Positions 24,313 to 47,329 of a DNA stretch of 64,000 nt are shown here, piece after piece; within the stretch, counting starts at the first letter, position 1, and each line of letters opens with the position of its first letter. The stretch comes from Alphaproteobacteria bacterium (GTDB taxonomy: Bacteria > Pseudomonadota > Alphaproteobacteria > UBA828), in assembly GCA_965237415.1 (NCBI GenBank), contig CBDEFM010000001.1, positions 260,205 to 324,204 on the forward strand. Direction: 5' to 3'. The translations under genes and the position numbers were made by a program. A model generated the notes under the pieces. It was not told where the DNA came from. It saw only the letters and a program-made list of their open reading frames with translations, and made no database searches.

Positions 24313-24599
24313 CGATAACGGGCGGGATCGGATTCAGGCTGACGGCGCGGTGGGAGGCGTACTGATCCTCACGATCGCGTTCGACGCGAGCGGCATCGGA
24401 AGGCAAGAAAGGGGATAACGTGTTCCGGGGCACACAACAGACTGGTGCGTGGCGTGGACGAGTGCACCCCCATCATCAAGCCGGCTCACAACGGTGGCGC
24501 GCGGGTCGGCGTGCACCCCGCGCGCCGGACCACGACCACTTGCAAGACCGGCCCCCTACGGCTGGCATCGCCGCCCGGAATAGGCCCGTGCGCTCCACC

Positions 24600-27500
24600 A
24601 TGGCTCGCGGGACCGCAGCCGCGCTGCTCACGCTGGCCGTGCTGTTGGGCGTGGCCCTGCCGGGTTCCCCCGCCTACGCGAGCGACGTGCTGTGGGAGGC
24701 CTCGTTGACGGTGGGCAACTACCTGACTGCGGACGAGCCGCATTCGGAGAGGGAACGAGGTTTTCGCAGGGAGTATTGCGTTCCGGAATCCTGGGGGTCG
24801 TACCTCGGTGAGGATTGGTCAAATCTTCTTGAAGAGGATCGATCCAATTATGATATGTGCTATGGCAGCATTTCCGACCGTACGTTCGAAGTGGATGGAA
24901 GGACCTACACGCTGGAAGGTGTATTTCACTGGGTTTCCGACGAAGTGTTCCTACTCGAATTCACGAGATCGGTCGATATGACCCCGCTGTTGGGCAAGGA
25001 GTTCATCGTCAACGGGGTCACGTTCCGGATGGCAGACGGGAGCTTCCCGGCTGGCAATAGAGGCGACGGCATCGTCTGGCATGCACCCCAATGGAACGCC
25101 GCCATGGGCTGGGAGGTGGGTTCCACCATCTCGGTGCAAATCAAGGAGTCGGGGCCGCTGACGGCAAAATTCCGGAACCTGCCGAACAGCCACAACCGGG
25201 AGCCGGCCCTTTTGGGGCTGTATCCGTTTGCCTTTCTGCTTGAGTTCAGCGAGGAGGTCGCGGTCGACGCGGACACCTTGCGCTCGGTGCTGACAGTGAC
25301 AGGCGGCGAGATGACCGGCATCGCGCGGCGATATCCGCCGAGGAACCAGATCTGGCGGATCACCGTGCAGCCGGCCTCGCTGGTCGCACCGGTGATGCTC
25401 ACGCTGACGGCGAAGGCGAGCTGCGAGGACGATGGGGCCATCTGCACCGCGGACGGCCGCCGCATGGCCGAGGCGGTCGAGGCCGAGGTGCCGGGCGCCC
25501 CGCCGCCCCGGGTGACGAATGTGGCGATACCGGGATCGTCGGGTCCCGGAGAGAACGGCACCTGGGACACGGGCGAGATCGTCCTTGCGCAGGTGAGCTT
25601 CAGCGTGCCGGTGACATTGGTGAAGCCTGGGGGCAGGGAACCGACCCTCGGCATCCTGCTCGACGGTATGCGCCGCGAGGCGGCGTACTGGACCAGAACC
25701 GAACGGACCCTCCTGTTCCGCTACACGGTGACCGCGGAGGACGACGGGGCGCGCAACGCGTGGGTGGTGTCGAACGGGCTGTCGCTCAACGGTACGACCC
25801 TCCGTGACGAGATCGACCGGGACGCGAATCTCGGCTTCTCTATCGCGCCGCCCCTCCCCGGGCTTTCGGTAGCGGATGTCACGGTGACGGAGGCCGCAGG
25901 CGCGACGGCGGATTTCGTGGTGACCCTGAGCCCGGCGGCGTCGGAGACGGTGACGGTGGACTACGCCACCTCGGACGGCACCGCGACCGCGGGGGCGGAC
26001 TACACGGACACCTCGGGGACGCTCACCTTCAACGCCGGCGAGACCTCGAAGACGGTCTCGGTGCCGGTGGTCGATGACGCCCACGAGGACAGCGGAGAGA
26101 CCTTCACGCTGACGCTCAGCAACGCGTCGGGCGGCGAGGCGTATCTTGCCGACGCAAGCGCGACCGGGGCTATCGAGAACGACGACCCCGCGGTGGAAGC
26201 GACGCCGCTGACGGCGGAGGTCCGGGACATTTCCGTGGAGGCCCACGATGGGAGCACGGCGTTCACCTTCGAGCTTCGCTTCAGCGAGGACGTAACGGGC
26301 CTGAGCTACGCGACGCTACGCAATTCCGCGTTCTCGGTAACGAACGGGCAGGTGACGCGGTCGCGACGCCTCGTGCAAGGGAAGAACAGACGCTGGGAAA
26401 TCACCGTCGCGCCCGACGGCAACGACGACGTCACCATCACGCTGCCGGCGACGACGGACTGCGCGGCCACGGGCGCCATCTGCAACGAAGACGGCCGTCC
26501 ACTCTCGGCGGCGGTCACGGCGACGGTCCCGCATACGGCGCAGGCGCAGACGGACACGCCCCCGCCGCCGGACTTCCGGGTCCGGTTCGAGGACATTCCG
26601 GCCGTGCATGACGGGACGAGCGCGATCGTCTTCAAGGTCAAGTTCAACACGAAGCCCAAGGCCAGCTACAGCTACGTCACGATGCGCGACGGCACGCTGG
26701 TCGTCCGGCAGGGCGGAGCGGCCATTGCGGTCACGCGGGCCAAACGCCTCAACAAGCCGCACAACGACCAGTGGGAGATCACGGTCAATCCGGTGTCGAA
26801 GGCGAACATGACGGTCGCGATCCGGCAGACCGCCTCGTGTAGCGAGACGGGCGCGATCTGCACGGAGACGGACGAGCCGCTCGCGAATGGCGGGCTCTCG
26901 CAGACGATCCTCGGCCCGCCGGGGCTCCGGGTGATGGATGCGGAGGTGCGGGAGGCCGCGGACGCGACGGTGGATTTCTCGGTCATCCTGAGCCCCGTGT
27001 CGTCGGCGACGGTGACGGTGAACTACGCCACCGCGGACGACACGGCCACCGCGGGCTCGGACTACACGGCCACGTCGGGGACGCTGACCTTCGAGCCGGG
27101 CGTCACCTTAAAGAGGGTGTCGGTGCCGGTGCTCGACGACGTCCTTGACGATGACGGGGAGACGTTCACGCTGACCTTGAGCAATCCCTCGGGGGCGAAT
27201 GCGTATCTGGTGGACGCCACGGCCACGGGCACCATCCGGAACTCCGACCCGCTACAGCAAGCGTGGCTGGCGCGGTTCGGCCGCACGGTGGCCGACCAGG
27301 TGATCGAGGCGGTGCAGGGCCGTATTCAGGCGCCGCCGCGTCCCGGGGTCGCGGTGAGTCTCGCCGGCCAGGCGATCGGCGGCGACGGATCGTTGTCCGG
27401 GGCCGGTTCCGCGGAGCCGGACGGCGCGGACGCGCGGGCGTCGCTGGCCGAGGAGACCGAGGCCCGGTCGCGGCTGGAGACGATGTCGAACTGGTTGCAG

Positions 27501-28799
27501 GGCGAGAATGAGGAGGATGGCAGTCGGGCCGGGTTCCGGTCACGCAGCGTGACGGAACGCGACCTGCTGACCGGGACGTCGTTCTCGCTGACGGGCGAGG
27601 CCGCGGCGGACGGCGGCTACGCGTCGCTGTGGGGCCGGGGCGCGGTCTCAAGCTTCGACGGCCGCGACGGCGACCTCACGCTCGACGGCGAGGTGACGAG
27701 CGCCATGCTCGGGGCGGACTGGACGCGCGACCCCGGATCGGGGTCCGGGGCAGGTGCGTGGACCGCCGGGCTTCTGGTGTCGCATTCGCGCGGCGACGGC
27801 AGCTACCGGGGCGAGGGCGAGGGCAAGGTCGAGAGCGCGCTGACCGGGCTCTATCCCTATGGGCGCTATGCGGTGAGCGACCGCGTGACGGTCTGGGGCG
27901 TGGCCGGCTACGGGTCGGGCACGCTCACGCTGACGCCGAAGAACCCGGTGGAGGGCGAGGACGACAGGCCGATCGAGACCGATATGAGCCTGACGATGGG
28001 CGCGGTGGGCGTGCGCGGGGTGATGATCGAGGCGCCGGCCGAAGGCGGCCCGGAACTCGCGGTCAAGTCGGACGCGATGATGGTGCGCACGAGCTCGGAG
28101 GCGGCAAGCGGCAGCGGCGGCAATCTCGCGGCGGCGGAGGCCGACGTGACCCGTCTGCGGCTCGGTCTGGAGGGGAGCTGGCGCGGCATCGAGGCCGGCG
28201 GCGGCGAACTGACGCCGCGTCTCGAGATCGGGCTTCGCCATGACGGCGGCGATGCCGAGACCGGCTTCGGCCTCGACCTCGGTGGCGGGCTTGCCTGGTC
28301 GCATCCGGCGAGCGGGGTCTCGGCCGAGCTCAGCGGGCGCGGCTTGCTGACCCACGAGGCCGGCGGCTTCCGCGACCGTGGTATCTCGGGCTCGCTCGGC
28401 TGGGATCCGCGGCCGGAGACCGGGCGCGGGGTGAGCCTCACGCTGACCCAGACGCTGGGTGCGTCGGCCTCGGGCGGCATGGACGCGCTCTTGTCGCGCG
28501 GCACCCTGGCGGATCTGGCGGCCAACGACGACGGGGCGGACGATCTGCAGCGCCGCCGTCTGGAGCTCCGGCTCGGCTACGGCGTCTCCGCCTTCGGGGA
28601 CCGGTTCACGGCGACGCCGGAGATCGGGCTCGGCCTGTCGGACAGCGCGCGCGACTACAGCCTCGGCTGGCGGCTCGGTCTCGACCGGTCCGGACCGAAC
28701 GCGCTCGAACTCCGGCTCGAGGCGACGCGGCGCGAGAGCGCAAACGACAACGCGGACCCGGAGCACGGCATCGGGTTCAAGCTGACGGCGAGCTGGTGA
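24600..28799 (+). CDS. Autotransporter with Calx-beta and Big-like passenger modules (about 1,399 aa)
   Basis: Signal peptide MARGTAAALLTLAVLLGVALPGSPAYA at ATG 24600. Two Calx-beta domains (..VDYATSDGTATAGADYTDTSGTLTFNAGETSKTVSVPVVDD..) and three 90-100-aa Big-like modules. The C-terminal about 470 aa is a beta-barrel translocator with alternating pattern, ending GFKLTASW. Confidence 0.85.
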   Translation: MARGTAAALLTLAVLLGVALPGSPAYASDVLWEASLTVGNYLTADEPHSERERGFRREYCVPESWGSYLGEDWSNLLEEDRSNYDMCYGSISDRTFEVDGRTYTLEGVFHWVSDEVFLLEFTRSVDMTPLLGKEFIVNGVTFRMADGSFPAGNRGDGIVWHAPQWNAAMGWEVGSTISVQIKESGPLTAKFRNLPNSHNREPALLGLYPFAFLLEFSEEVAVDADTLRSVLTVTGGEMTGIARRYPPRNQIWRITVQPASLVAPVMLTLTAKASCEDDGAICTADGRRMAEAVEAEVPGAPPPRVTNVAIPGSSGPGENGTWDTGEIVLAQVSFSVPVTLVKPGGREPTLGILLDGMRREAAYWTRTERTLLFRYTVTAEDDGARNAWVVSNGLSLNGTTLRDEIDRDANLGFSIAPPLPGLSVADVTVTEAAGATADFVVTLSPAASETVTVDYATSDGTATAGADYTDTSGTLTFNAGETSKTVSVPVVDDAHEDSGETFTLTLSNASGGEAYLADASATGAIENDDPAVEATPLTAEVRDISVEAHDGSTAFTFELRFSEDVTGLSYATLRNSAFSVTNGQVTRSRRLVQGKNRRWEITVAPDGNDDVTITLPATTDCAATGAICNEDGRPLSAAVTATVPHTAQAQTDTPPPPDFRVRFEDIPAVHDGTSAIVFKVKFNTKPKASYSYVTMRDGTLVVRQGGAAIAVTRAKRLNKPHNDQWEITVNPVSKANMTVAIRQTASCSETGAICTETDEPLANGGLSQTILGPPGLRVMDAEVREAADATVDFSVILSPVSSATVTVNYATADDTATAGSDYTATSGTLTFEPGVTLKRVSVPVLDDVLDDDGETFTLTLSNPSGANAYLVDATATGTIRNSDPLQQAWLARFGRTVADQVIEAVQGRIQAPPRPGVAVSLAGQAIGGDGSLSGAGSAEPDGADARASLAEETEARSRLETMSNWLQGENEEDGSRAGFRSRSVTERDLLTGTSFSLTGEAAADGGYASLWGRGAVSSFDGRDGDLTLDGEVTSAMLGADWTRDPGSGSGAGAWTAGLLVSHSRGDGSYRGEGEGKVESALTGLYPYGRYAVSDRVTVWGVAGYGSGTLTLTPKNPVEGEDDRPIETDMSLTMGAVGVRGVMIEAPAEGGPELAVKSDAMMVRTSSEAASGSGGNLAAAEADVTRLRLGLEGSWRGIEAGGGELTPRLEIGLRHDGGDAETGFGLDLGGGLAWSHPASGVSAELSGRGLLTHEAGGFRDRGISGSLGWDPRPETGRGVSLTLTQTLGASASGGMDALLSRGTLADLAANDDGADDLQRRRLELRLGYGVSAFGDRFTATPEIGLGLSDSARDYSLGWRLGLDRSGPNALELRLEATRRESANDNADPEHGIGFKLTASW

Positions 28800-35948: not shown

Positions 35949-36830
35949 CCGACTGACCGGGTTCACCGGTGCACCGGCAACCGGTATCGTGCCGACGCCA
36001 CCGCCGCGCGCGATTGCACGGGGAATCGGTATGCGATTTCGACGTCGCGCGGTCCGTGCAGCCCTTCATCGCAATCGCGCAAGGCGCCTCGCCCCGCGTG
36101 ACGCACGACAGGGCGTTACCGGGCACCCACGGTCATTCGCACTGTGTCTGTCGACAGCCCCGCACAGTACAGCGCGCTCTCCGGCGAAGTGTGTCTGGAA
36201 CTTCGGTGCGCGCCGGCTATCGTCGGCGTCAGTCACCGACGCACAGGCAACGAGATGGCTTGCATCGGCAAGGCGACGGACCGCCACCGGAGCGGAGTGC
36301 GCACACCGACCCCACTGGGCGCCCTCGCGGGTCGCGCCGCAACGACGATGTTGCATCCGCGCATTCGAAGGTGCGTCGACGGCCATCGCGCCCGGGGCGG
36401 GGGTAGCCGGTTGCAGGCGAAACACCCGAAGGCGTCCCCGTGCGGCAGGCCCAATGCCGGTCGAGCATCGAGGTTGCCGCAAACGGCATTTTCATTCCCG
36501 CCGCCGAGTCGATAGTCAGGTCGGTGCACGACACGGCAGCCGCGGCCGGAGGCGCGGACGGTGAAGCGGAGAGGATCGGAAAGCTCGGGAGCGGAGACGG
36601 CGAACCGCCGCAACGGCGCCGGGGAATGCCGGGCGCGGCGGGCCGTCCATCGCGGCGCGACAGGCGCGATCTTGGCCACGGGCAGGCCATCGGACGGGCT
36701 GCTCTCGCACGTGTCGGGACGCGCATGCACCGAAGGCGCTCGAAGCGCCCGGTCGCGTCCGAAAAATTGTTTGAAAGCAACCGGTTGCGGCGGATTCCAA
36801 GCAGCTCTGGCCTGGAGTCCACGACACCGT

Positions 36831-36864
36831 TTGGCTCGCGATAACTGTTGTTATCGCGAGCCAA
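36831..36864 (+). promoter_or_regulatory. 34-bp lox-like palindrome, site A: TTGGCTCGCGATA-ACTGTTGT-TATCGCGAGCCAA
   Basis: Perfect 15-bp arms around the asymmetric centre TGTT. The 13-8-13 layout is the same as loxP. It is identical to site B except that the centre is inverted. Confidence 0.6.
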
Positions 36865-37050
36865 CTTGTCAATTCCTGCGTTTCCGACCGGCGACCCGGA
36901 GGCTGCCCAGTCTCGACCCGAACATCGTAAGCCGTGCCGGAACTCGATACAACCGGTTGGTTCAAGGGCGGTTTCTTCCTCCCGGGACGCGCCGACTGTG
37001 ATGCGCGCGCCTCCCTCGCCCGGAAGCCGACCCTGAGCCCGGCGACGATT

Positions 37051-37065
37051 TTGGCTCGCGATAAC
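37051..37065 (+). promoter_or_regulatory. Isolated half-site TTGGCTCGCGATAAC
   Basis: Exact copy of one 15-bp arm without its partner, located 94 bp beyond the recombinase stop codon. Confidence 0.45.
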
Positions 37066-37158
37066 ATTTTCTGGAAATCCGCCCCTTGGCACGATTCCTG
37101 TCGGGCGCACGGCGCCGGACGCCGCCGTGGGTACGCCGCATGATACGCCACCGCGCCC

Positions 37159-38130
37159 CTACTCGCGATGCTGTAAACGGGCGAGCTGCGCCGCCCCGCT
37201 TCGCCGCGCCAGGAGGCGCTCGCCGTAGCGGTTGACCATCGCCGTCGTCTTCCACCGTCCCGCGTGCAGGATGGCCGCCATGCCGATGCCTTCGGCGACC
37301 ATGTCCTGCGCCGCCCCGACCCGTGTGCTGTGCCCGGAGATGCGCTCGACGACGTCGCCGGGCAATCCGGCACGCTCGGCCATGGCCTTGAAGATGCGCG
37401 GCACCTGGCTCGCATCGAGCCGCTCGCCGACCGCACCCCGGTTCAGCGAGCGGAAGAGCATGCCTTGGCACACGCCGCTTCGCTCGAGCCACTCGTGCAC
37501 CAGCGCCACGCTGTCGCGCGCAAGATACGCCGTCGCGCCCCGGCCTTCGGCGTCCGTCTTGGAGCGGCGCACCAGCACCGTGGCCGCGCCGTCGCGTTCT
37601 TCAACGATATCCGTCACTTGCAGCGCGACGAGCTCGCCCCGGCGCAGCAGCGTGTCGTAGGCGACGGCCAGTAGCGCGCGGTTGCGCGCATCGATGAGCC
37701 CATCGCCCATGGCGTCGAGCAGGCGCTCGCGCAGCGCCCCGGTGAGCCCCTTGGCCTGCGCCTGACGCCGGCCCGTTCGCCGGTGCATGCGCTGCAGCGC
37801 GCGTCGCACCGGCTCGCGTTGCGTCGTCTTTCCCACCCCCATCGCCCGGTGCGCGGCGGCGATGCTCGCCACGTAGCGGCGCACCGTCGCGGGCGCGCGG
37901 ACCCGGGCCATGGCGTCGACGAACGCGGCGAGGGTCTCGGCGCTCGCGGCCAGCGCCGGCTCACCGCGCTCGGTGCACCAGGCGGCGTAGATGGCGAGGT
38001 CGGAGCGCAGCGCCCGCTCGGTGTTGGCGCTCAGCGCCCCGCGCGCGGCCTTGGTGCAGGCGTCGAGCGTGTCCCGGTGAGTCTGGCCGTCGCTCTCGCG
38101 CGGCGGGTAGCGAACGGCGTCTACCAGCAT
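37159..38130 (-). CDS. Cre-like tyrosine recombinase
   Basis: 323 aa from ATG 38130 (MLVDAVRYPP). It is colinear with Cre landmarks: AAWC; RNRALLAVAYDTLLRRGELVALQVTDI (Cre RNLAFLGIAYNTLLRIAEIARIRVKDI); RRSKTD; SGHSTRVGAAQDM (Cre SGHSARVGAARDM); HAGRWKTTAMVNRY (Cre QAGGWTNVNIVMNY, catalytic Tyr). The track start 38184 merely reads through site B. Confidence 0.85.
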   Translation of the reverse strand: MLVDAVRYPPRESDGQTHRDTLDACTKAARGALSANTERALRSDLAIYAAWCTERGEPALAASAETLAAFVDAMARVRAPATVRRYVASIAAAHRAMGVGKTTQREPVRRALQRMHRRTGRRQAQAKGLTGALRERLLDAMGDGLIDARNRALLAVAYDTLLRRGELVALQVTDIVEERDGAATVLVRRSKTDAEGRGATAYLARDSVALVHEWLERSGVCQGMLFRSLNRGAVGERLDASQVPRIFKAMAERAGLPGDVVERISGHSTRVGAAQDMVAEGIGMAAILHAGRWKTTAMVNRYGERLLARRSGAAQLARLQHRE

Positions 38131-38167
38131 GGGGAAGCCTCCAGGTCCGTGGAATACGGCCCGGAGA

Positions 38168-38201
38168 TTGGCTCGCGATAACAACAGTTATCGCGAGCCA
38201 A
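38168..38201 (+). promoter_or_regulatory. 34-bp lox-like palindrome, site B: TTGGCTCGCGATA-ACAACAGT-TATCGCGAGCCAA
   Basis: Exact reverse complement of site A, so the two sites are in inverted orientation. It lies between the divergent recombinase and giant autotransporter genes. Confidence 0.6.
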
Positions 38202-38359
38202 ATCGAGTGCGGCGGGGCGACCGGTTCGGACGTGGGCGAAGACGAGGAGCCACGGGCGATGTCGGGGCCATGTCCGCCGTGTCTCGGCTGGGAAGGGGGA
38301 CGTCGGGCGCTCGCGCGCGGCGCCTGCGGCGACGAAGGCAAGGCCGGGGAGATGGGTTC

Positions 38360-41300
38360 ATGGCGAGAGTGAGACAGGCAACCGCGTCACGCGGCCGCAC
38401 GGGGGCGCCGGAAACCGCCTCGACGCAGTGGGGGGCGCGGTGTCGGCAGGAGAAGCGAGCGGCAATCGCGCCCGGGAAGACACCGGAGGCGGCACATGCG
38501 TCGCGACGGGAGCCGGTAGCACCCGTCTCCCGGCGGCGAGACTGCCCGCCTAGACCTTCTCCCACCGCGCGGTCCCCGCGCGGGCTATCTTCCTCCCTAC
38601 TCGCTTATTTCGCGGCCGTCCCGGCGGCGGCGCTGCGCTGCCTGTCCCCGGATCGGGGTCCGGGGCAAGCCCCGCGCGCGGTTTCCTCCCGGCGCCGCGG
38701 CCCGCCTGCCGCCGCGCTACGCGCCGGGGCGGGCATCGCCCTGCTGCTGCTCGCCATGCTGACCGCCCTGCCGGCCCAGGCGCAGACCGACACCACGGCG
38801 CCGACGCTCGTCACGACCAGCGCTCGCGGACCCACAGTCATTAGCACTGGCTTATCTCTCTACTTGATTTACGACGAGAATCTGGACCACGACAACCATC
38901 CACCGGTCAGCGCCTTCAGCGTCATGGTCGATAGCAGTCCGATCACGGTGACAAGCGTAGAGGAAAGAACAACTATCAGCTTGAGGCTGAATCTGTCCCC
39001 CACCATCCGCCAGGGCCAGACCGTCACGGTGAGCTACACCGATCCGAGCTCGAGCAACGACGCCAACGCAATCCAGGACGCGGCCGGCAACGACGCCGCC
39101 ACCTTCGCGAACCAGGCGATACGCAACATATCCACCGTCACCGGCATCCCCGGCGCCCCGACGGGGCTGTCGGCGACGAAGATGGGCGCCACGCAGATCG
39201 ACCTTTCCTGGACCGCGCCGACGGACACCGGCGGTGCGGAAATCACCGGCTACAAGATCGAGTGGTCGGCCAACGGCAATGCCCCCTGGAATGAGCTGAT
39301 CGCGGACACCGGCAACACGGACACGACGTATTCCGACACCGGGCTCGCCTCGAAGACCACGCGCCACTACCGGGTTTCGGCGAGAAATTCCTTCGACCTC
39401 GGCCCCGGCCCCGCCTCGAACGTCGACGACGCCACCACCGACGACATCGTCGGGCCGGTGCTGGTGAGGGTGTCGATCAACGCGTCCGGCGATAATGTAA
39501 GGTTTTTCTTTGACGAGGCGCTTGACCAGCGCTCAGGAAAAACCCCGCCGGAGAGCGCCTTCGAGGTGCTGGCCGATGGAGTCCGGGTAGCGACAGACGG
39601 TTTCGACGCGGTTTCGGAACCCCACCGTATTGTGCTCGTAACTACCGCCCCGACCATCAAGCAGGGCCAGACGGTCGTCGTCACCTACACCGACCCGAGC
39701 ACGGGCAACGATCCCGTCGCCATCCAGGACCTGGCGGGCAACGACGCGGCGACCTTCACCACCGGCGTGTCGGGCGTCCCCGCGGTCGTCAACAGTTCCA
39801 ACGTCGCGAATCCCGCCCCGGACGCGCCGACGGGGCTGACGGCGACGAAGATGGGCGGCACGCAGATCGACCTTTCCTGGACGGAGCCGGCGGACCCTGG
39901 CGATGCGGTAATCACGGGCTACTGGATCGAGGTCTCGGATACCGGCGCTACCGGCCCCTGGACCGAGCTGATCGCGGACACCGGCAACACGGACAAGACG
40001 TATTCCGACACCGGGCTCGCCTCGGAAACCACGCGCCACTACCGGGTTCGGGCGATCAATTCCTTCGGCCCCGGCCCCGCCTCGAACATCGACTCTGCCA
40101 CCACCGACGACATCGTCGCGCCGGAGCTGGTGAGGGTGTCGATCAACGCGTTCGGCGATAATGTAAGGTTTTTCTTTGACGGGGCGCTTGACCAGCGCTC
40201 AGGAAAGACCCCGCCGGAGAGCGCCTTCGAGGTGCTGGCCGATGGAGTCCGGGTAGCGACAGACGGTTTCGACGCGGTTTCGGAACCCCACCGTATTGTG
40301 CTCGTAACTACCGCCCCGACCATCAAGCAGGGCCAAACGGTCGTCGTTACCTACACCGACCCGAGCACGGGCAACGATGCCGCCGCCATCCAGGATGCCG
40401 CCGGCAACGACGTGGCGACATTCACCACCGGAAAGGCGGGCGTCCCCGCGGTCGTCAACAGTTCCAATCAACCCGGCGTGAAGATATCCAAGACGGAACT
40501 GAGCATCGACGAAGGCGGCACCGGCACCTACACGGTGGCGCTCTATTCGCAGCCGACGGCGACGGTGACGGTCACGCCGTCGCGCACCAGCGGCGATGCG
40601 GACATCACCGTGAGCGGCGGCCCCCTCACCTTCACCACGACGACCTGGAATGTGGCGCAGACGGTGACGGTACGCGCGGCCGAGGATGCGGATTTGGTTC
40701 GCGATACGGCCGTGATCGGCCACGCGGTGAGCGGCGGCAACTACGCCTCGGTCATGGCCGCTTCGGTGACCGTCACCGCGGCTGACAACGATGCGTCCAA
40801 CGAGCCTGCCACCGGCAAGCCGACGATTTCAGGGACGGCGCAGGTCGGCCAGACGCTGACCGCGGCGAAGGGCAACATCAACGACCCAAACGGGCTGACC
40901 AAGGCCGACAACGACGAGACGGGCTTCGCCTACACCTACCAGTGGATCCGGGTGGATTCCGACGGCACGTCGAACCCGATGAATGTCGGGACCTCGAGCA
41001 CCTACACGCTGGCGGCGTTGGACGAGGACAAGAAGATCAAGGTGGAAGTGAGCTTCCACGACGACAATGGCCACGCGGAGACGCGGACGAGCGACGCGTA
41101 TCCGTCCGCGGACACGGTCCTGCCCTCTTCGGCGGTGAGCCTGTTGCTGTCGCCTGCATCGATCCGCGAGAACGGCGGCAGTGCCAGGATCAGGGCAAGG
41201 CTGAACGTGGCGTCGAGTGCCGAGACGACGGTCACGGTATCGGTCGAGCCGGTCCCGCCGGCGGTCGCCGGGGACTACGCGCTGAGCGCCAACACGGTGC

Positions 41301-44300
41301 TGAGGATTGCCGCCGGGCGGACCTTCAGCACGGGCCTGGTGACGCTGACGGCGGTGAACAACGATGTGGACGCGGACGACAAGACGGTCATCATCCTGGG
41401 CGATGCGGAGAACAGCGCGGGCGTTGGCGGTCCGGCCGAGGAGACGCTGACGATCGCGGACGACGATCGGGGCGTGCGGCTGGGCACGCGGTCGCTCGCG
41501 ATCGATGAGGGCCGCAGCAAGGGCTACACGGTGGTGTTGGGGTCGCGGCCCACGGGGACGGTGACGGTGACGCCGCAGGTTCCGCCCGGCATGGTGACGG
41601 TGTCGGGGCCGCTCCGGTTCACGCCGAGCACATGGGACGAGCCGCAGACGGTGACGGTGACGGCGGGCCAGGACGAGGACGAGGAGGACGAGTCGGTCCA
41701 GGTGACGCACGTTGTGTCGGGCGCGGATTACGGCGGCGTGACCGCGGACATCGTGCGGGTCACGGTGAGCGACGACGACGGCGGCACGGGCGTGCTGGAG
41801 GTGGGTGTGTATGACGGCTCGGACGGGGCCGGCGTCAAGGACCCGCCGCCGCAGGTGCATTTCGGGCAGCCGTTCAGGCTCGACCTGGTGTGGTCGCATC
41901 TGCGGACGAAGCATTGGGACAATCCGGAGTACGCGATCGGGCCGACCCGGGCGATCCGGGCGGTCGGCGGGACGGTGCGTGCGGTGCGGGGCCGGTTCAG
42001 CCCGCCCAGTAAGGGGGACCACGGCTGGGACCAGGCGCGCCTGACGCTCGAGGTCACGCCCGAGGCGAGCGACGGCAGCGACGACGTGACGCTGGTCCTG
42101 GAGCCGATGGATTGCAGCAGCAATGACGCGCGAGCGCTGTGCGCCTTCGCCAGCATCGGGAAGTGGACCGGCCTGGCGAAACGGGTGCGCTTCACGGTGC
42201 GCGGTATCACCGGTCCGCCGGAGGTGGCGCCGGCGGAGCTGGACCTGACGGTGACCCCGCAGGAGCGGCGCGGCACGGATATGTTCCTGGTGAGCTTCGA
42301 CGCCGACGAGGAGGGGACGCGCTTCCGGCTGCAGACGCAGGCGGCCGGCGGGGATTGGACGAGAACGCGCGAGTGGACCGGGGCGATGCGCTCGGAGAAC
42401 CAGCATCGGGTGACGGTCGACGGGGTGTCGCACGATGACGCCTACGAGTTCCGGGTGCGCTGGGAGAACCGCTTCGGGCCGGGGCCGTGGGCGCAAGCGA
42501 GCACGGCCGGCGCGGCGCCGGCGGCGCCGACAAGGCTCACGCTCACGGCGATGTACGACGCCAAGAGCCTGGCGCTCGCCTGGACCCCGGCGGCAGGCGG
42601 GGTGCGGATCGACCGCTTCCAGTACCGGATCGAGCGAATCCGTAGCGAGGAGCTGGTTATCCTTTCGGACACGGGGCCGATTCAATATTTGGGCAATTGG
42701 ATCGACATTCCGAACAGCGGAACGGGCGGCGCGAACCACCGTTCGTGGACGATCGGGGGGCTTGCGAACATATGGGCCGCCAGGATCCGGGTGCGCGCGG
42801 TGAGCGCGTCGGGCCGCGCGGGCGCGGCCTCGGCGGAAGCGGTGGCGGCGGTCGACGTGCCGCGGGTGGTGGACATCTCGATGGCGTCGGACCCCGGTGC
42901 CGACGGGTACTACACGTACGGAAACAGGATCGGGATCAACGTGAGGTTGAGCCGTCCGGTCCGCATCCCGGGTAACGATCGGGGACCGTCGCTGGAGGTC
43001 GAGATCGGAAGCCGCGTGTACAGCCTGGGGCTGGTGTCGATGCGGCAGTCGGTGGCGCATGAACTGATCGGACAGGCGCCGTTGTCGGGCGACGTGCTGT
43101 TCTTCGAGCACAGCCTTGGTACGGGTGACGTGGACCACAACGGGATCCGGGTGCCGGCCGGCGCGCTCAAAGGCAATGGCGGGCGGCTGCTCGACCTGAC
43201 ACCCGCGGGAGAAGACCAGGTGGCGGACCTCGCCGTGAGCACGGCAAAAACCTTCCCGGCGCACAAGGTGAACACGGTCCCGCCGGGCATCGTGCGCATG
43301 ACCTGGCAGCAGAACCTGGACACGAAGGGCGTGGTGCGGGGCGCCGAGGTGCGCATCCACTACGACCGCGACCTCGACCCGGATTCGAGGCTGGATCCCG
43401 GCAGGGTCCAGTACCGGGTGGCGTATTCGGAGTCGCGGGCGCTCGGCCGCAGCGTGACGGGACTGAGCATCGGCGACGCCACCGACGACGGGATCGACAA
43501 CCCCCGGACGGTGCGGCTGGTGCTGGCGCCGGTGGTCCACGATCCGAGCACCAACCCGCGCAACAGCCCGACGCCGCCCGAGACCGTGACGGTGACCTAT
43601 TCGGGAATGAAAGTGAGCGGGAACACCGGGCGGCGATACGGCCCCTTCGATACGCTGGGGAACCCCCTCGCGGGCTTCACCCGGGCGGCGGAGCACCTGA
43701 CCGCGACGCAGGCAGCGTTGGCGGCGGAGTTCCGAAACGTACCGCCCGAGCACAACAGCCCGTTCACCTTCGAGGTGCATTTCAGCGAGGAGGTCGCGCT
43801 CACCGAAGAGATGCTGCTGAACTCGGTCTTCACGGTGACCAACGGCACGGTGTCGGCCGCGCGGCGGCTCAATCCGCCGAGCAACATCGCCTGGGAGATC
43901 ACGGTCGATTCGATCACCGAGGAGGCGGTGACGGTGGTGCTGCCGGAGACCACGGACTGCACCGTGGCGGGCGCGATCTGCACCTGGGACGAGCGCCCGC
44001 TCTCGGCGGAGATTTCGGCGACGGTGGCCGGCCCGCAGATCGTGGCGACGAGCGTGGTGACGAGCGCGGCGGTGACCAACGGTCCCGGAGACAATGGCAC
44101 CTGGGACACCGGCGAAACCGTCGAGGCCGAGGTGCGCTTCAGCGCGCCGGTGACGGTGGTGGCGCCTCCGGGCTCCGGGCCGATCCTCGCCATCCTGCTC
44201 GACGGCACGCGCCGCGAGGCGGCGTACACCGGCGGTTCAGGCACCGACACGCTGCGCTTCAGCTACACGGTTGCGGAAGCGGACAACGGAGCCCGGAAGG

Positions 44301-47300
44301 CGCGCGTTGCCCCGAACGGGCTCGCGCTCAACGGAACGACCATCGGAGACAGTGAAGGCGTCGCGGCCGATATCGGTTTCTCTACCGCGCCGTATGTGAC
44401 GGCTGTCGAACTCGCGGCGGATGGCTCGGGGGACGGGATCTGGACCCCAGGCGAGACTATTGCCGCCCGCCTCACCTTCAGCGAGGCGGTGACGGTGGCG
44501 GGCGGCACGCCGTATCTCTGGATCACGGTCGCAGGGATGCCGGGCGCGCTCGGCTACGCGTCCGGATCGGGAAGCGACACGCTGGTCTTCTCCATAGAGG
44601 TGCCGGGCGGGAGCCTCTCCGAAATCGAGGTGACGGCGGACAGTCTCAACGCCAACGGCGCGGCCATCGTGTCGCAGGCGAGCGGCATCGCGGCGGAGCT
44701 CGGCCATGACGGCACGGCGCCGGAGGCGGCGCCGGAGAACGCGGGCGCCACCGCGCTGACGGCGGCGTTCGCGGAGCTGCCGGAGAGCCACGGCGGCGCG
44801 GCGTTCACCTTCGAGCTCCGCTTCAGCGAGGCGTTCCCGATCGGCTACGAGACGATGCGCGACGATGCGTTCACGGTGACGAACGGGCGTGTGACCGGGG
44901 CGCGACGCCTCGACAATCCGCACCGCGAGTCCGTGCGCATGGAACCCAACCGGGTATGGGAGATCACCGTCGAGCCCGACACGGACGCCGGAGACGTCTC
45001 GATTGCGCTGCCTGAAACGACCGACTGCACCGCGGCCGGCGCGGTCTGCACCGGGGACAACCGCCCGCTCACGGCGGAGATTTCGGCGACGGTGGCCGGC
45101 CCGGCGCAGGCGGTGACGCCCCCGCCGCCGGGCTTCCGGGTCCGCTTCGAGGACTTCCCGTCGGAGCATGACGGGACCAGCGCGGTCGTCTTCAAGGTGA
45201 TGTTCAACAAGAAGCCGGCGAACTACAGCTACCGCACGATGCGCGACAACACGCTCCTCGCCCGGCAGGGGAGCCAAGCGGTCACGCCCAAGCGGGCCAA
45301 ACGCCTCAACGCACCGCACAGCGACCAGTGGCGGATCACGATCGAGCCGGCCTCCAAGGCGGACATGCACGTCGAGATCCGCCACACCACGGCGTGCACC
45401 GAAACGGGCGCGGTGTGCACGGCGGAGAACGAACAGCTCTCGAACCGGCTCTCGAAGACGATCCTCGGCCCTCCGGGGCTCGCGGTGGCGGACGCGCGGG
45501 TGGAGGAAGCGGCGAACGCGACGGTGGACTTCGCGGTGACGCTCAGCCGCGCGTCATCGTCGACGGTGACGGTGGACTATGCGACCTCGGACGGCACGGC
45601 GACGGCGGGCAGCGACTACACGGCGACGTCGGGGACGCTGACCTTCGCGCCGGGCGACACGGCGAAGACGGTGTCGGTGCCGGTGCTGGACGACGCCCAT
45701 GACGAGGACCATGAGACGTTCACGCTGACGCTCTCCAACCCCTCGGGCGGCAACGCCTGGCTCTCCGACGCCACGGCGACGGGCACGATCGAGAACACCG
45801 ACAAGATGCCGCAGGCGTGGCTGGCGCGCTTCGGGCGCACGGTGGCCGACCAGGTGATCGACGCGGTGCAGGGCCGCATTCAGGCGCAGCCGAGTCCCGG
45901 GGTCGCGGTGAGTCTCGCGGGCCAGGCGATCGGCGCCAACGGATCGTTGTCCGGGGCCGGTTCCGCGGAGCCGGACGGTGCGGACGCGCGGGCGACGCTG
46001 GCCGAGGAGACCGAGGCCCGGTCGCGGCTGGAGACGATGTCGAACTGGCTGCAGGGCGAGAATGAGGAGGATGGCAGTCGGGCCGGGTTCCAGTCACGCA
46101 GCGTGACGGAACGCGACCTGCTGACCGGGACGTCGTTCTCGCTGACCGGCGAGGCCGCGGCGGGCGGCGGCTACGCGTCGCTGTGGGGCCGGGGCGCGGT
46201 CTCGCGCTTCGACGGCCGCGACGGCGATCTCACGCTCGACGGCGAGGTGACGAGCGCGATGCTCGGGGCGGACTGGACGCGCGATGCGTGGACCGCCGGG
46301 CTTCTGGTGTCGCATTCGCGCGGCGACGGCAGCTACCGGGGCGAGGGCGAGGGCAAGGTCGAGAGCGCGCTGACCGGGCTCTATCCCTATGGGCGCTATG
46401 CGGTGAGCGACCGCGTGACGGTCTGGGGCGTGGCCGGCTACGGGTCGGGCACGCTCACGCTGACGCCGAAGAACCCGGTGGAGGGCGAGGACGACAGGCC
46501 GATCGAGACCGATATGAGCCTGACGATGGGCGCGGTGGGCGTGCGCGGGGTGATGATTGAGGCGCCGGCCGAAGGCGGCCCGGAGCTCGCGGTCAAGTCC
46601 GACGCGATGATGGTGCGCACGAGCTCGGAGGCGGCAAGCGGCAGCGGCGGCAATCTCGCGGCGGCGGACGCCGATGTGACCCGTCTGCGTCTCGGGCTTG
46701 AGGGAACCTGGCGCGGCATCGAGGCCGGCGGCGGGGAACTGACGCCGCGTCTCGAGGTGGGCGTGCGCCATGACGGCGGCGACGCCGAGACCGGCTTCGG
46801 CCTCGACCTCGGTGGCGGGCTTGCCTGGTCGCATCCGGCGAGCGGGATATCGGCCGAGCTCAGCGGGCGCGGCTTGCTGACCCACGAGGCCGGCGGCTTC
46901 CGCGACCGTGGTATCTCGGGCTCGCTCGGCTGGGATCCGCGGCCGGAGACCGGGCGCGGGGTGAGCCTCACGCTGACCCAGACGCTGGGTGCGTCGGCCT
47001 CGGGCGGCATGGACGCGCTCTTGTCGCGCGGCACCCTGGCGGATCTGGCGGCCAACGACGACGGGGCGGACGATCTGCAGCGCCGCCGTCTGGAGCTCCG
47101 GCTCGGCTACGGCGTCTCCGCCTTCGGGGACCGGTTCACGGCGACGCCGGAGATCGGGCTCGGCCTGTCGGACAGCGCGCGCGACTACAGCCTCGGCTGG
47201 CGGCTCGGTCTCGACCGGTCCGGGGCGAACGCGCTCGAACTCCGGATCGAGGCGACGCGGCGCGAGAGCGCCAACGACAACGCGGACCCGGAGCACGGCA

Positions 47301-47329
47301 TCGGGTTCAAGCTGACGGCGAGCTGGTGA
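38360..47329 (+). CDS. Giant autotransporter adhesin (Big-like/FN3/Calx-beta passenger, about 2,990 aa); start codon uncertain
   Basis: The ORF is open from 38129. A signal-peptide-like segment RRRGPPAAALRAGAGIALLLLAMLTALPAQA lies at about 38690-38780. The passenger has alternating Big-like and FN3 modules, Calx-beta domains (VDYATSDGTATAGSDYTATSGTLTF) and three Cys-pair Big-like modules. The C-terminal beta-domain is nearly identical to that of 24600..28799 and ends GFKLTASW. ATG 38360 is the nearest upstream canonical in-frame start. Confidence 0.8.
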   Translation: MARVRQATASRGRTGAPETASTQWGARCRQEKRAAIAPGKTPEAAHASRREPVAPVSRRRDCPPRPSPTARSPRGLSSSLLAYFAAVPAAALRCLSPDRGPGQAPRAVSSRRRGPPAAALRAGAGIALLLLAMLTALPAQAQTDTTAPTLVTTSARGPTVISTGLSLYLIYDENLDHDNHPPVSAFSVMVDSSPITVTSVEERTTISLRLNLSPTIRQGQTVTVSYTDPSSSNDANAIQDAAGNDAATFANQAIRNISTVTGIPGAPTGLSATKMGATQIDLSWTAPTDTGGAEITGYKIEWSANGNAPWNELIADTGNTDTTYSDTGLASKTTRHYRVSARNSFDLGPGPASNVDDATTDDIVGPVLVRVSINASGDNVRFFFDEALDQRSGKTPPESAFEVLADGVRVATDGFDAVSEPHRIVLVTTAPTIKQGQTVVVTYTDPSTGNDPVAIQDLAGNDAATFTTGVSGVPAVVNSSNVANPAPDAPTGLTATKMGGTQIDLSWTEPADPGDAVITGYWIEVSDTGATGPWTELIADTGNTDKTYSDTGLASETTRHYRVRAINSFGPGPASNIDSATTDDIVAPELVRVSINAFGDNVRFFFDGALDQRSGKTPPESAFEVLADGVRVATDGFDAVSEPHRIVLVTTAPTIKQGQTVVVTYTDPSTGNDAAAIQDAAGNDVATFTTGKAGVPAVVNSSNQPGVKISKTELSIDEGGTGTYTVALYSQPTATVTVTPSRTSGDADITVSGGPLTFTTTTWNVAQTVTVRAAEDADLVRDTAVIGHAVSGGNYASVMAASVTVTAADNDASNEPATGKPTISGTAQVGQTLTAAKGNINDPNGLTKADNDETGFAYTYQWIRVDSDGTSNPMNVGTSSTYTLAALDEDKKIKVEVSFHDDNGHAETRTSDAYPSADTVLPSSAVSLLLSPASIRENGGSARIRARLNVASSAETTVTVSVEPVPPAVAGDYALSANTVLRIAAGRTFSTGLVTLTAVNNDVDADDKTVIILGDAENSAGVGGPAEETLTIADDDRGVRLGTRSLAIDEGRSKGYTVVLGSRPTGTVTVTPQVPPGMVTVSGPLRFTPSTWDEPQTVTVTAGQDEDEEDESVQVTHVVSGADYGGVTADIVRVTVSDDDGGTGVLEVGVYDGSDGAGVKDPPPQVHFGQPFRLDLVWSHLRTKHWDNPEYAIGPTRAIRAVGGTVRAVRGRFSPPSKGDHGWDQARLTLEVTPEASDGSDDVTLVLEPMDCSSNDARALCAFASIGKWTGLAKRVRFTVRGITGPPEVAPAELDLTVTPQERRGTDMFLVSFDADEEGTRFRLQTQAAGGDWTRTREWTGAMRSENQHRVTVDGVSHDDAYEFRVRWENRFGPGPWAQASTAGAAPAAPTRLTLTAMYDAKSLALAWTPAAGGVRIDRFQYRIERIRSEELVILSDTGPIQYLGNWIDIPNSGTGGANHRSWTIGGLANIWAARIRVRAVSASGRAGAASAEAVAAVDVPRVVDISMASDPGADGYYTYGNRIGINVRLSRPVRIPGNDRGPSLEVEIGSRVYSLGLVSMRQSVAHELIGQAPLSGDVLFFEHSLGTGDVDHNGIRVPAGALKGNGGRLLDLTPAGEDQVADLAVSTAKTFPAHKVNTVPPGIVRMTWQQNLDTKGVVRGAEVRIHYDRDLDPDSRLDPGRVQYRVAYSESRALGRSVTGLSIGDATDDGIDNPRTVRLVLAPVVHDPSTNPRNSPTPPETVTVTYSGMKVSGNTGRRYGPFDTLGNPLAGFTRAAEHLTATQAALAAEFRNVPPEHNSPFTFEVHFSEEVALTEEMLLNSVFTVTNGTVSAARRLNPPSNIAWEITVDSITEEAVTVVLPETTDCTVAGAICTWDERPLSAEISATVAGPQIVATSVVTSAAVTNGPGDNGTWDTGETVEAEVRFSAPVTVVAPPGSGPILAILLDGTRREAAYTGGSGTDTLRFSYTVAEADNGARKARVAPNGLALNGTTIGDSEGVAADIGFSTAPYVTAVELAADGSGDGIWTPGETIAARLTFSEAVTVAGGTPYLWITVAGMPGALGYASGSGSDTLVFSIEVPGGSLSEIEVTADSLNANGAAIVSQASGIAAELGHDGTAPEAAPENAGATALTAAFAELPESHGGAAFTFELRFSEAFPIGYETMRDDAFTVTNGRVTGARRLDNPHRESVRMEPNRVWEITVEPDTDAGDVSIALPETTDCTAAGAVCTGDNRPLTAEISATVAGPAQAVTPPPPGFRVRFEDFPSEHDGTSAVVFKVMFNKKPANYSYRTMRDNTLLARQGSQAVTPKRAKRLNAPHSDQWRITIEPASKADMHVEIRHTTACTETGAVCTAENEQLSNRLSKTILGPPGLAVADARVEEAANATVDFAVTLSRASSSTVTVDYATSDGTATAGSDYTATSGTLTFAPGDTAKTVSVPVLDDAHDEDHETFTLTLSNPSGGNAWLSDATATGTIENTDKMPQAWLARFGRTVADQVIDAVQGRIQAQPSPGVAVSLAGQAIGANGSLSGAGSAEPDGADARATLAEETEARSRLETMSNWLQGENEEDGSRAGFQSRSVTERDLLTGTSFSLTGEAAAGGGYASLWGRGAVSRFDGRDGDLTLDGEVTSAMLGADWTRDAWTAGLLVSHSRGDGSYRGEGEGKVESALTGLYPYGRYAVSDRVTVWGVAGYGSGTLTLTPKNPVEGEDDRPIETDMSLTMGAVGVRGVMIEAPAEGGPELAVKSDAMMVRTSSEAASGSGGNLAAADADVTRLRLGLEGTWRGIEAGGGELTPRLEVGVRHDGGDAETGFGLDLGGGLAWSHPASGISAELSGRGLLTHEAGGFRDRGISGSLGWDPRPETGRGVSLTLTQTLGASASGGMDALLSRGTLADLAANDDGADDLQRRRLELRLGYGVSAFGDRFTATPEIGLGLSDSARDYSLGWRLGLDRSGANALELRIEATRRESANDNADPEHGIGFKLTASW
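38790..40471 (+). repeat. About 2.5 tandem copies of a 666-669-bp unit (Big-like plus FN3 module) inside the giant gene
   Basis: 39431-39805 and 40097-40471 are nearly identical (offset 666 bp). The FN3 parts at about 39148-39430 and 39818-40085 are about 85% identical (offset 669). Confidence 0.85.

Follow-up and report, generated by a model that had tools for sequence, protein, structure and literature searches.

A distant in-frame ATG as the probable start of a giant autotransporter gene beside a Cre-like recombinase module

The gene considered here encodes a giant autotransporter and lies in a 64,000-nucleotide stretch (G000:C1:260205-324204, hereafter the window) of an alphaproteobacterial genome of 4.75 Mb, 67% GC and two contigs. 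It stands beside a module made of a Cre-like tyrosine recombinase gene and lox-like sites, and has no start codon adjoining the region that encodes its signal peptide. We propose that the gene is not broken and that, on balance, it probably starts at a canonical but distant codon, ATG 38360, from which it would be translated with a very long presequence typical of its gene family. A preliminary description of the sequence had listed this ATG but treated it as an implausible start. A distant canonical start is nevertheless the simplest reading, because homologous loci carry equally long in-frame extensions that begin at start codons preceded by Shine-Dalgarno (SD) sequences.

Results

No start codon adjoins the signal peptide of an otherwise intact gene

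The features at the 5′ end of the giant gene are as follows.

38360..47329, + strand: proposed coding sequence of a giant type Va autotransporter (from its open reading frame, domains, C-terminal barrel and GC content by codon position)
38360..38782, + strand: proposed presequence of 141 codons, consisting of a low-complexity extension, then n-region SSRRRGPPAAALRAGAG, the h-region and a cleavage site between AQA and QTD
38346..38351, + strand: SD-like GGGGAG, 8 nt before ATG 38360
38259..38372, + strand: upstream open reading frame (ORF) of 37 codons, out of frame (+1), with SD GAGGAG at 38244-38249 (-8.1 kcal/mol)
38496..38519, + strand: upstream ORF of 7 codons (MRRDGSR, then stop), out of frame (+1), with SD GGAGG at 38485-38489 (-9.5 kcal/mol)
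38499..38755, + strand: C-rich stretch free of ATG, GTG and TTG in all frames
38735..38770, + strand: hydrophobic core of the signal peptide, IALLLLAMLTAL, containing ATG 38756 and about 84% identical in DNA to three metagenome loci (L021, L022 and L023)

In its longest version the giant ORF begins at ATG 38129 and runs uninterrupted to 47329 on the plus strand (3,066 codons, 9.2 kb). Its GC content at the three codon positions is 0.64/0.54/0.89 in the body, 0.74/0.76/0.72 between 38203 and 38690, and 0.88/0.65/0.94 from 38690 on. Because the body combines this strong coding periodicity with an unbroken 3,066-codon frame, the gene is evidently maintained and hence needs a start. Three giant ORFs of the genome, this one included, are free of frame breaks (3,066, 4,684 and 2,701 codons, ~31 kb in total).

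The only domains that Pfam recognized in the protein were SWM_repeat, fn3 and Calx-beta, and Pfam's own barrel model gave no match to it at E ≤ 1. The C terminus, which ends in FKLTASW, matched the NCBIfam model TIGR01414 (autotrans_barl) with 26.2 bits against a cut-off of 16, which identifies a type Va barrel and backs the label 'autotransporter' that had been given to the gene from the letters alone. Six paralogous barrels are present in the genome. The barrel region of the giant gene (46340-47326) and that of a 1,459-amino-acid paralogue encoded at 24420-28799 (27810-28796) are 97.9% identical in protein sequence while the passengers and N termini differ, which suggests a recent gene conversion or domain swap. 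The ATG at 24600 (MARGTAAALLTLAVLLGVALPGSPAYA), the start of the paralogue cited in the preliminary description, is as stated there.

Canonical start codons in the giant frame are ATG 38129, TTG 38168, GTG 38207, ATG 38270, GTG 38279, ATG 38360 and GTG 38369, and the next one is ATG 38756, the sole in-frame ATG near the signal peptide, which translation places inside the hydrophobic core IALLLLAMLTAL. The preliminary description had identified the upstream ATGs (38360, 38270 and 38129) as well as this internal one, and had reported that the frame runs open through lox-like site B (38168-38201); all of this holds, and the frame proves open as far back as the stop TAG 38108. It had also reported that no start codon adjoins the signal peptide, and the span without any start proved wider than it had stated (38499-38755). 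The base counts are C 114, G 86, T 41 and A 18 (259 in all). Such a gap has a probability of ~0.018 under a first-order Markov model of this C-rich DNA, and of the 357,654 gaps in the genome as a whole, 53 reach 260 nt or more. The putative signal-peptide pattern, recognized by eye as n-region SSRRRGPPAAALRAGAG, an h-region and the AQA-QTD junction, is kept in L021, L022 and L023.

ATG 38360 is the best canonical candidate in the window

Among the in-frame canonical starts, ATG 38360 alone has a good SD: its duplex with the anti-SD (-8.1 kcal/mol) is the best of the set, and random genome positions average -2.9 kcal/mol, with a 5th percentile of -7.0 kcal/mol. Its homologue in L023 is the called start there (ATGGCGAGGACGGAACAGGCA versus ATGGCGAGAGTGAGACAGGCA, encoding MARTEQA versus MARVRQA), and a relic of a paralogous leader at C2:29.9 kb can be aligned with it as well. 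This relic (G000:C2:29893-30065, minus strand) carries a lox-arm remnant, GTATCGCGAGAAT, behind an AT-rich promoter-like stretch (TTGACA ... TAGAAT), and downstream of it the sequence is 70–77% identical to the leader at 38210-38417, including an ATG homologous to 38360.

ATG 38360 lies 123 codons from the hydrophobic core, within the family range of 43–179, and represents an SD-preceded start with an open in-frame path to the signal peptide of a kind that recurs in homologues; that the leader is translated is our reading of these features. The extension that it would add is 69% R, P, A, G or S and places ~110 residues ahead of the n-region. Pfam models, ESPR (PF13018) included, gave no match at E ≤ 1 to the residues encoded by 38129-38800 or 38360-38800.

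Two other SD-preceded ATGs in this leader are in the +1 frame. The ORF that begins at ATG 38259, about where relatives have their first SD-preceded ATG past the lox-like site, overlaps ATG 38360 and ends at TGA 38370-38372, 10 nt past it, an arrangement that could reflect translational coupling. ATG 38496 has a counterpart in L021 that is in frame with the giant ORF, and the distance from this ATG to a conserved GAGAC block is 44 nt here versus 39 nt in L021. A programmed frameshift from ATG 38496 into the giant frame was considered and rejected: AGC CGG TAG offers no slippery heptamer, and L021 is in frame without any shift. We likewise rejected a minus-strand gene in the leader, as no periodicity was found in any phase.

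If the distant start is used, ribosomes would initiate at ATG 38360, and translation of the upstream ORF (38259-38372) would help to load them there. The resulting 141-residue presequence would consist of a long, sequence-unconstrained extension rich in R, P, A, G and S followed by an ordinary signal peptide, and selection would keep the frame open and the start in frame rather than preserve the peptide sequence. Translating the C-rich leader might shield the long transcript from premature termination, or might delay export as other long autotransporter signal sequences do.

Homologous loci share a putative distant start and an open frame

When we searched genome collections for a whole-protein orthologue, nothing closer than ~50–56% was found, and these matches were to repeat domains; a comparison of 36700-39700 with a plasmid collection gave no match. 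Because there is no close whole-protein orthologue, the comparison rests on homologous leaders and modules, namely L021, L022 and L023 (proteins P0011, P0124 and P0125) together with 47 loci with related recombinases. The three metagenome loci each have a divergently oriented recombinase of 323–327 amino acids and a homologous signal peptide. L021 and L022 also have palindromic lox-like sites, with arms unlike those of the window.

All three have an SD-preceded in-frame ATG or GTG 62–67 codons before the ALRAGAG motif, and in many of the 47 recombinase loci the nearest in-frame canonical start is 27–99 codons before the hydrophobic core. By this comparison, the missing start beside the signal peptide is a trait of the family and not local damage. 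Most family loci have an in-frame SD-preceded ATG 43–179 codons ahead of the core. Four of them (L036, L037, L040 and L043) have GGAGG and an ATG 39–40 nt past the site, share the N terminus MxxGSVRxR, and are in frame and open for 144, 105, 179 and 77 codons, respectively, despite their differing leader lengths. Another form of start, [A/G]TG ACN GGN, is common to L022, L023, the paralogue at C2:3022317 and a further genome (G003; L031/L047), and is found in frame 27–67 codons before the signal-peptide region.

We then counted stop codons and starts in the leaders, defined as the DNA between the lox-like site and the hydrophobic core, over 21 loci from several phyla in which the module stands beside a gene for a secreted giant protein. 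Stops were distributed 12/52/32 over frames 0/+1/+2 (binomial P = 2.6e-6 for frame 0, the loci being not fully independent); the leader of the window itself has none in frame 0 versus 2 and 1 in the other frames. Starts with an SD 5–12 nt upstream showed the opposite bias, at 28/13/11 (P = 0.007, with the same dependence among loci). Insertions and deletions point the same way: those in the proximal leaders of the four close homologues measure 24, 6 and 3 nt, and L036 and L037 differ by a 96-nt indel and a compensated +1/-1 pair that together keep the frame.

The peptides themselves are another matter. Family leader peptides are 56–75% R, P, A, G or S, and a tblastn search with the Arg-rich leader peptide, run without composition correction, returned thousands of spurious matches to off-frame translations of GC-rich DNA, a result that speaks solely for the compositional nature of this peptide. 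The preliminary description had regarded a long Arg-rich extension conserved in orthologues at the protein level as one result that would speak against a missing start. Equally long Arg/Pro-rich in-frame extensions with SD-preceded ATG or GTG starts are indeed there, but it is the open frame and not the amino-acid sequence that is conserved. The reading that the data fit is that the leaders are translated and held open while their peptides are free of sequence constraint.

Several points weigh against a start at ATG 38360. Leader translation in this genome is deduced from sequence comparison, and to our knowledge a signal peptide 123 residues from the N terminus is far longer than any characterized autotransporter presequence. 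An open frame across the 534-nt leader has a chance probability of ~0.15; each taken alone, this open frame and the start-free gap are unremarkable by chance and only mildly unusual for C-rich DNA. The P values for stops and starts are overstated by the non-independence of the loci. Leader substitutions are spread evenly over codon positions (20/19/21 of 58 for L022 versus L023, 12/15/14 for L036 versus L037), GC content is flat over codon positions in the leaders (0.72–0.81), as it would also be in untranslated DNA, and the frame in which a homologous DNA block is read differs from locus to locus. When the leaders were tested for purifying selection by codon position, every pair came out flat, and such tests cannot tell a translated but unconstrained leader from an untranslated one. 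Finally, two starts typical of the family (38259 and 38496) are out of frame here, and this genome may have lost both to frame changes and kept a third.

Less likely alternatives: silencing, a non-canonical start, an assembly error and a start supplied by inversion

The last of these points underlies the most serious alternative, in which translation of the gene is shut off or strongly reduced in this genome: ribosomes would load mainly at the out-of-frame ATGs 38259 and 38496, and the gene would be either a young 5′ pseudogene or in a reversible OFF state. The preliminary description had raised damage or silence at the 5′ end as one option, and the two out-of-frame SD-preceded ATGs lead us to keep it as a minority view that we consider unlikely, if worth serious attention. 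ATG 38496 has the strongest SD of all and is homologous to an in-frame ATG in L021, and ATG 38259 stands approximately where relatives have their first, in-frame SD-preceded ATG. An imperfect 11-nt tandem duplication at 38254-38274 gives two ATGs 11 nt apart, one in frame +1 and one in frame 0, and the leaders of relatives contain repeats with units that are not multiples of three, as expected for a gene class prone to ON/OFF switching. However, the 11-nt repeat scored 33, barely over the program minimum of 30, and no long simple repeat is present in the leader of the window. The 9.2-kb body is intact, with its full codon bias, and frame 0 is still open downstream of an SD-preceded ATG (38360) that is common to L023. 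The stop of the upstream ORF overlapping this ATG fits coupling rather than blockage, and relatives with in-frame starts also carry out-of-frame SD-preceded starts.

Repeats in this position can be substantial. Whereas Tandem Repeats Finder reported only the imperfect 11-nt repeat (1.9 copies) in the leader of the window, which is thus no simple-repeat phase-variation tract, the leader of the 4,684-codon autotransporter ORF of the same genome (C2:838825-824771) contains (GAGCC) x 60.8 at 99% identity (G000:C2:838250-838550, minus strand). This tract reads (AEPSR)n, lies upstream of the signal peptide and is likely to be a slipped-strand phase-variation tract. A homologous giant-gene leader in another genome, L011 (G004:C1, minus strand), has (GAGCGCC) x 9.4 at ~2380-2445, and 13-nt units are repeated 7.5 times in the leader of L022 (3873-3969) and 2.6 times in that of L021 (5762-5795). 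If these leaders are translated, gain or loss of repeat units would move the reading into another frame.

Initiation at a non-canonical codon just 5′ of the hydrophobic core, such as CTG 38633, CTG 38642 or ATC 38735, would leave a leader of 500 nt untranslated. Some observations agree with this option: the leader (38203-38690) is without the ordinary coding signature on either strand and without third-position substitution bias, coding-like composition sets in near 38690, and a block just 5′ of the signal peptide, TTCCTCCCGGCGC, is invariant in all four close homologues. We nevertheless consider it very unlikely, and the comparison gave no support to the preliminary description where it offered this option. 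No SD is found near the candidate codons, and the invariant block is pyrimidine-rich and resembles the anti-SD. The CTG of the AALRAG motif, conserved in three homologues, is CTA here, and an in-frame TTG of L021 is CCG. The RNA structure predicted for 38470-38770 is unremarkable (z = -1.05), and an Rfam scan of 36000-39500 gave no match. Moreover, a start beside the core would account neither for the scarcity of frame-0 stops across the family nor for the surplus of in-frame SD-preceded starts.

An indel introduced into the leader by assembly error could also have shifted the true start, 38259 or 38496, into the wrong frame. One extra base in 38262-38270 or 38499-38516 would bring an SD-preceded ATG into frame 0; the genome is estimated to be 96% complete, compared with 98–100% for other near-closed assemblies of the genus; and the names of related contigs give 5–10x coverage, suggesting long-read metagenome assemblies. 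Three giant ORFs totaling ~31 kb are nonetheless unbroken, so that the rate of indel errors must be low and the chance of one in a given stretch of 20–40 nt small, and we hold such an error to be highly improbable.

The remaining alternative, that the start and N terminus come from the invertible segment and are fused in frame through site B after inversion, is extremely improbable: although the frame is open through site B here and in several relatives, and the inverted form generated in silico keeps frame 0 open for ~100 more codons, that form offers just two GTGs, neither with an SD, the leaders of 15 loci fall into all three classes when their length is taken modulo 3, and four relatives have their SD-preceded ATG 39–40 nt past the site.

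The adjoining module may control transcription of the giant gene

The elements of the recombinase module are the following.

37159..38130, - strand: gene of a Cre-like tyrosine recombinase (323 amino acids), inside the invertible segment and divergent from the giant gene, with Phage_integrase (PF00589, 73.3 bits) and SAM-like domains and weak Xer-type matches
38168-38201, no strand assigned: lox-like site B, 13-8-13, TTGGCTCGCGATA ACAACAGT TATCGCGAGCCAA, the inverted partner of site A
36831-36864, no strand assigned: lox-like site A, 34 bp, TTGGCTCGCGATA ACTGTTGT TATCGCGAGCCAA with spacer ACTGTTGT, the inverted partner of site B
36867-36872, - strand: outward-reading TTGACA hexamer, 2 nt from site A within the invertible segment

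With a tyrosine recombinase domain and 34-bp 13-8-13 sites that have an asymmetric spacer, the module is of the Cre/lox type; its inverted sites enclose a segment of 1.3 kb. In relatives the lox-like arms co-vary and stay palindromic. Three further such modules are present in the genome, of which that at C2:3021029-3021946 is also divergent from a gene for a giant secreted protein (C2:3022164-3030269). A lone half-site (a single arm) at 37051-37066, with copies at C2:2143578 and C2:2247323, is kept within the invertible segment of at least three modules of the genome, ~190 nt from the distal site.

The 47 related recombinase loci (39–89% identity) came from a scan of species-representative genomes, and belong to metagenome-assembled genomes (MAGs) labeled Gammaproteobacteria, Alphaproteobacteria, Vicinamibacterales, Longimicrobiales and others. 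In most of them the gene beside the recombinase-proximal site encodes a secreted giant protein. For loci L036-L078, the protein identity is 48–89%. Several of the MAG names indicate sponge metagenomes (e.g., Spongia_Bin9), and other bin codes are ones that we take to denote sponge samples. The compensatory changes in the arms and the spread over several phyla point to horizontal transfer of a working cassette.

No second target gene was consistently found past the distal lox-like site, where just a flank of ~80 nt is conserved. This flank (36740-36830, read on the minus strand; 50–90 nt in L038, L046, L047, L050, L055, L060, L063 and L078) has the approximate form GCAAnnCATTG ... TTTTTC. In the window it includes a palindrome, GCAACCGGTTGC, followed by a T-rich run, and a copy of CAACCGGTTG lies inside the segment at 36949-36960; the flank could be a terminator or an accessory site. 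L022 and L023 also have a LuxR-type gene left of the module, which was set aside, as it is not linked in this genome.

The preliminary description had also suggested that the gene depends on a context that the recombinase can change. An N terminus supplied by inversion finds no support, since the ORF keeps no constant phase relative to the site, whereas control of transcription by the module is plausible. Of 23 related loci, 16 have TTGAC(A) 1–2 nt from the distal arm, as do two further modules of this genome. From the TTGACA hexamer to the last six bases of the lox spacer the distance is 17 bp (the 13-nt arm plus two spacer bases), and these six bases (AACAGT here, nACAGT in most loci) include A2, A4 and T6 of the TATAAT consensus. 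A scan of 36500-38900 for sigma-70 consensus promoters and terminators found nothing. Relatives with an SD-preceded ATG 40 nt past the site have no room for a promoter 3′ of it. Wherever an assembly allowed both to be placed, recombinase and target gene diverge, and the putative -35 element faces away from the giant gene. We suppose that the promoter used would have its -35 on the invertible segment: once this is inverted, the -35 would face site B, and a transcript beginning in the right arm would include all of the start codons in the leader.

Taking the module and the leader together, we tentatively suggest, with a confidence well short of even, that lox-like site and translated leader may form one switch cassette that has spread horizontally among symbiont MAGs of several phyla. 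The segment would carry only the -35 (TTGACA) and each lox spacer an outward -10 (nACAGT), so that inversion would assemble or dismantle a promoter starting in the lox arm; the first SD-preceded ATG would follow 40–160 nt on, and translation from it would cross an unconstrained leader to reach the signal peptide of a giant adhesin; and the leader would add a second tier of phase variation at the level of translation, by way of frameshifting repeats or turnover of starts. The gene in the window would then be transcriptionally OFF and partly re-wired translationally.

Discussion

Long autotransporter signals are roughly 40–70 residues in total, whereas ~110 residues would precede the n-region alone in the protein proposed here, and the family-wide distances reach from 43 to 179 codons. 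Exceptionally long signal sequences are a known property of autotransporters (PMC2805444). The long or extended signals of autotransporters and two-partner secretion proteins surveyed there (ESPR type, PF13018) resemble our proposal in that a very large type V protein has a Sec signal preceded by an extension from an upstream canonical start. The extension in the window differs from them: it matches neither ESPR nor another Pfam family and is not of the ESPR type, and whereas ESPR is a conserved motif, here the open frame is what is conserved and the residues are of low complexity.

The placement of a recombinase and inverted repeats directly 5′ of a large surface-protein gene recalls the hin/fljBA H segment, fimS and cwpV of Clostridioides difficile (PMC2784873). 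As in hin, the recombinase gene lies within the invertible segment, and as in cwpV (PMC2784873), the switch stands ahead of a long leader. The module differs in its enzyme, which is Cre-like and a tyrosine recombinase, in its 34-bp sites of 13-8-13 geometry, and in its putative promoter, which would be split, with its -35 in the segment and its -10 in the lox spacer; moreover, a single orientation was seen in all assemblies, and inversion and promoter activity are predicted from the sequence. The repeats in the leaders of relatives are also reminiscent of the simple-sequence-repeat contingency loci of adhesins, although the leader of the window lacks such a repeat.

One consequence concerns annotation. 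Gene callers will place the starts of these giant adhesins almost arbitrarily, and public homologues have been called 62 to 184 codons before the signal-peptide region; because of this, predictions of secretion and localization will often fail. If the leaders are translated, they would be the longest presequences described for type V secreted proteins, and a case in which selection acts on the openness of the frame but not on the encoded peptide. Long translated leaders appear to be a shared property of the secreted giant-protein genes that stand beside a Cre-like recombinase/lox-like module in many uncultured bacteria. The linkage of module and target gene across phyla, in several cases in sponge-associated bins, suggests a transferable system for the phase-variable display of eukaryote-like adhesins in symbionts.

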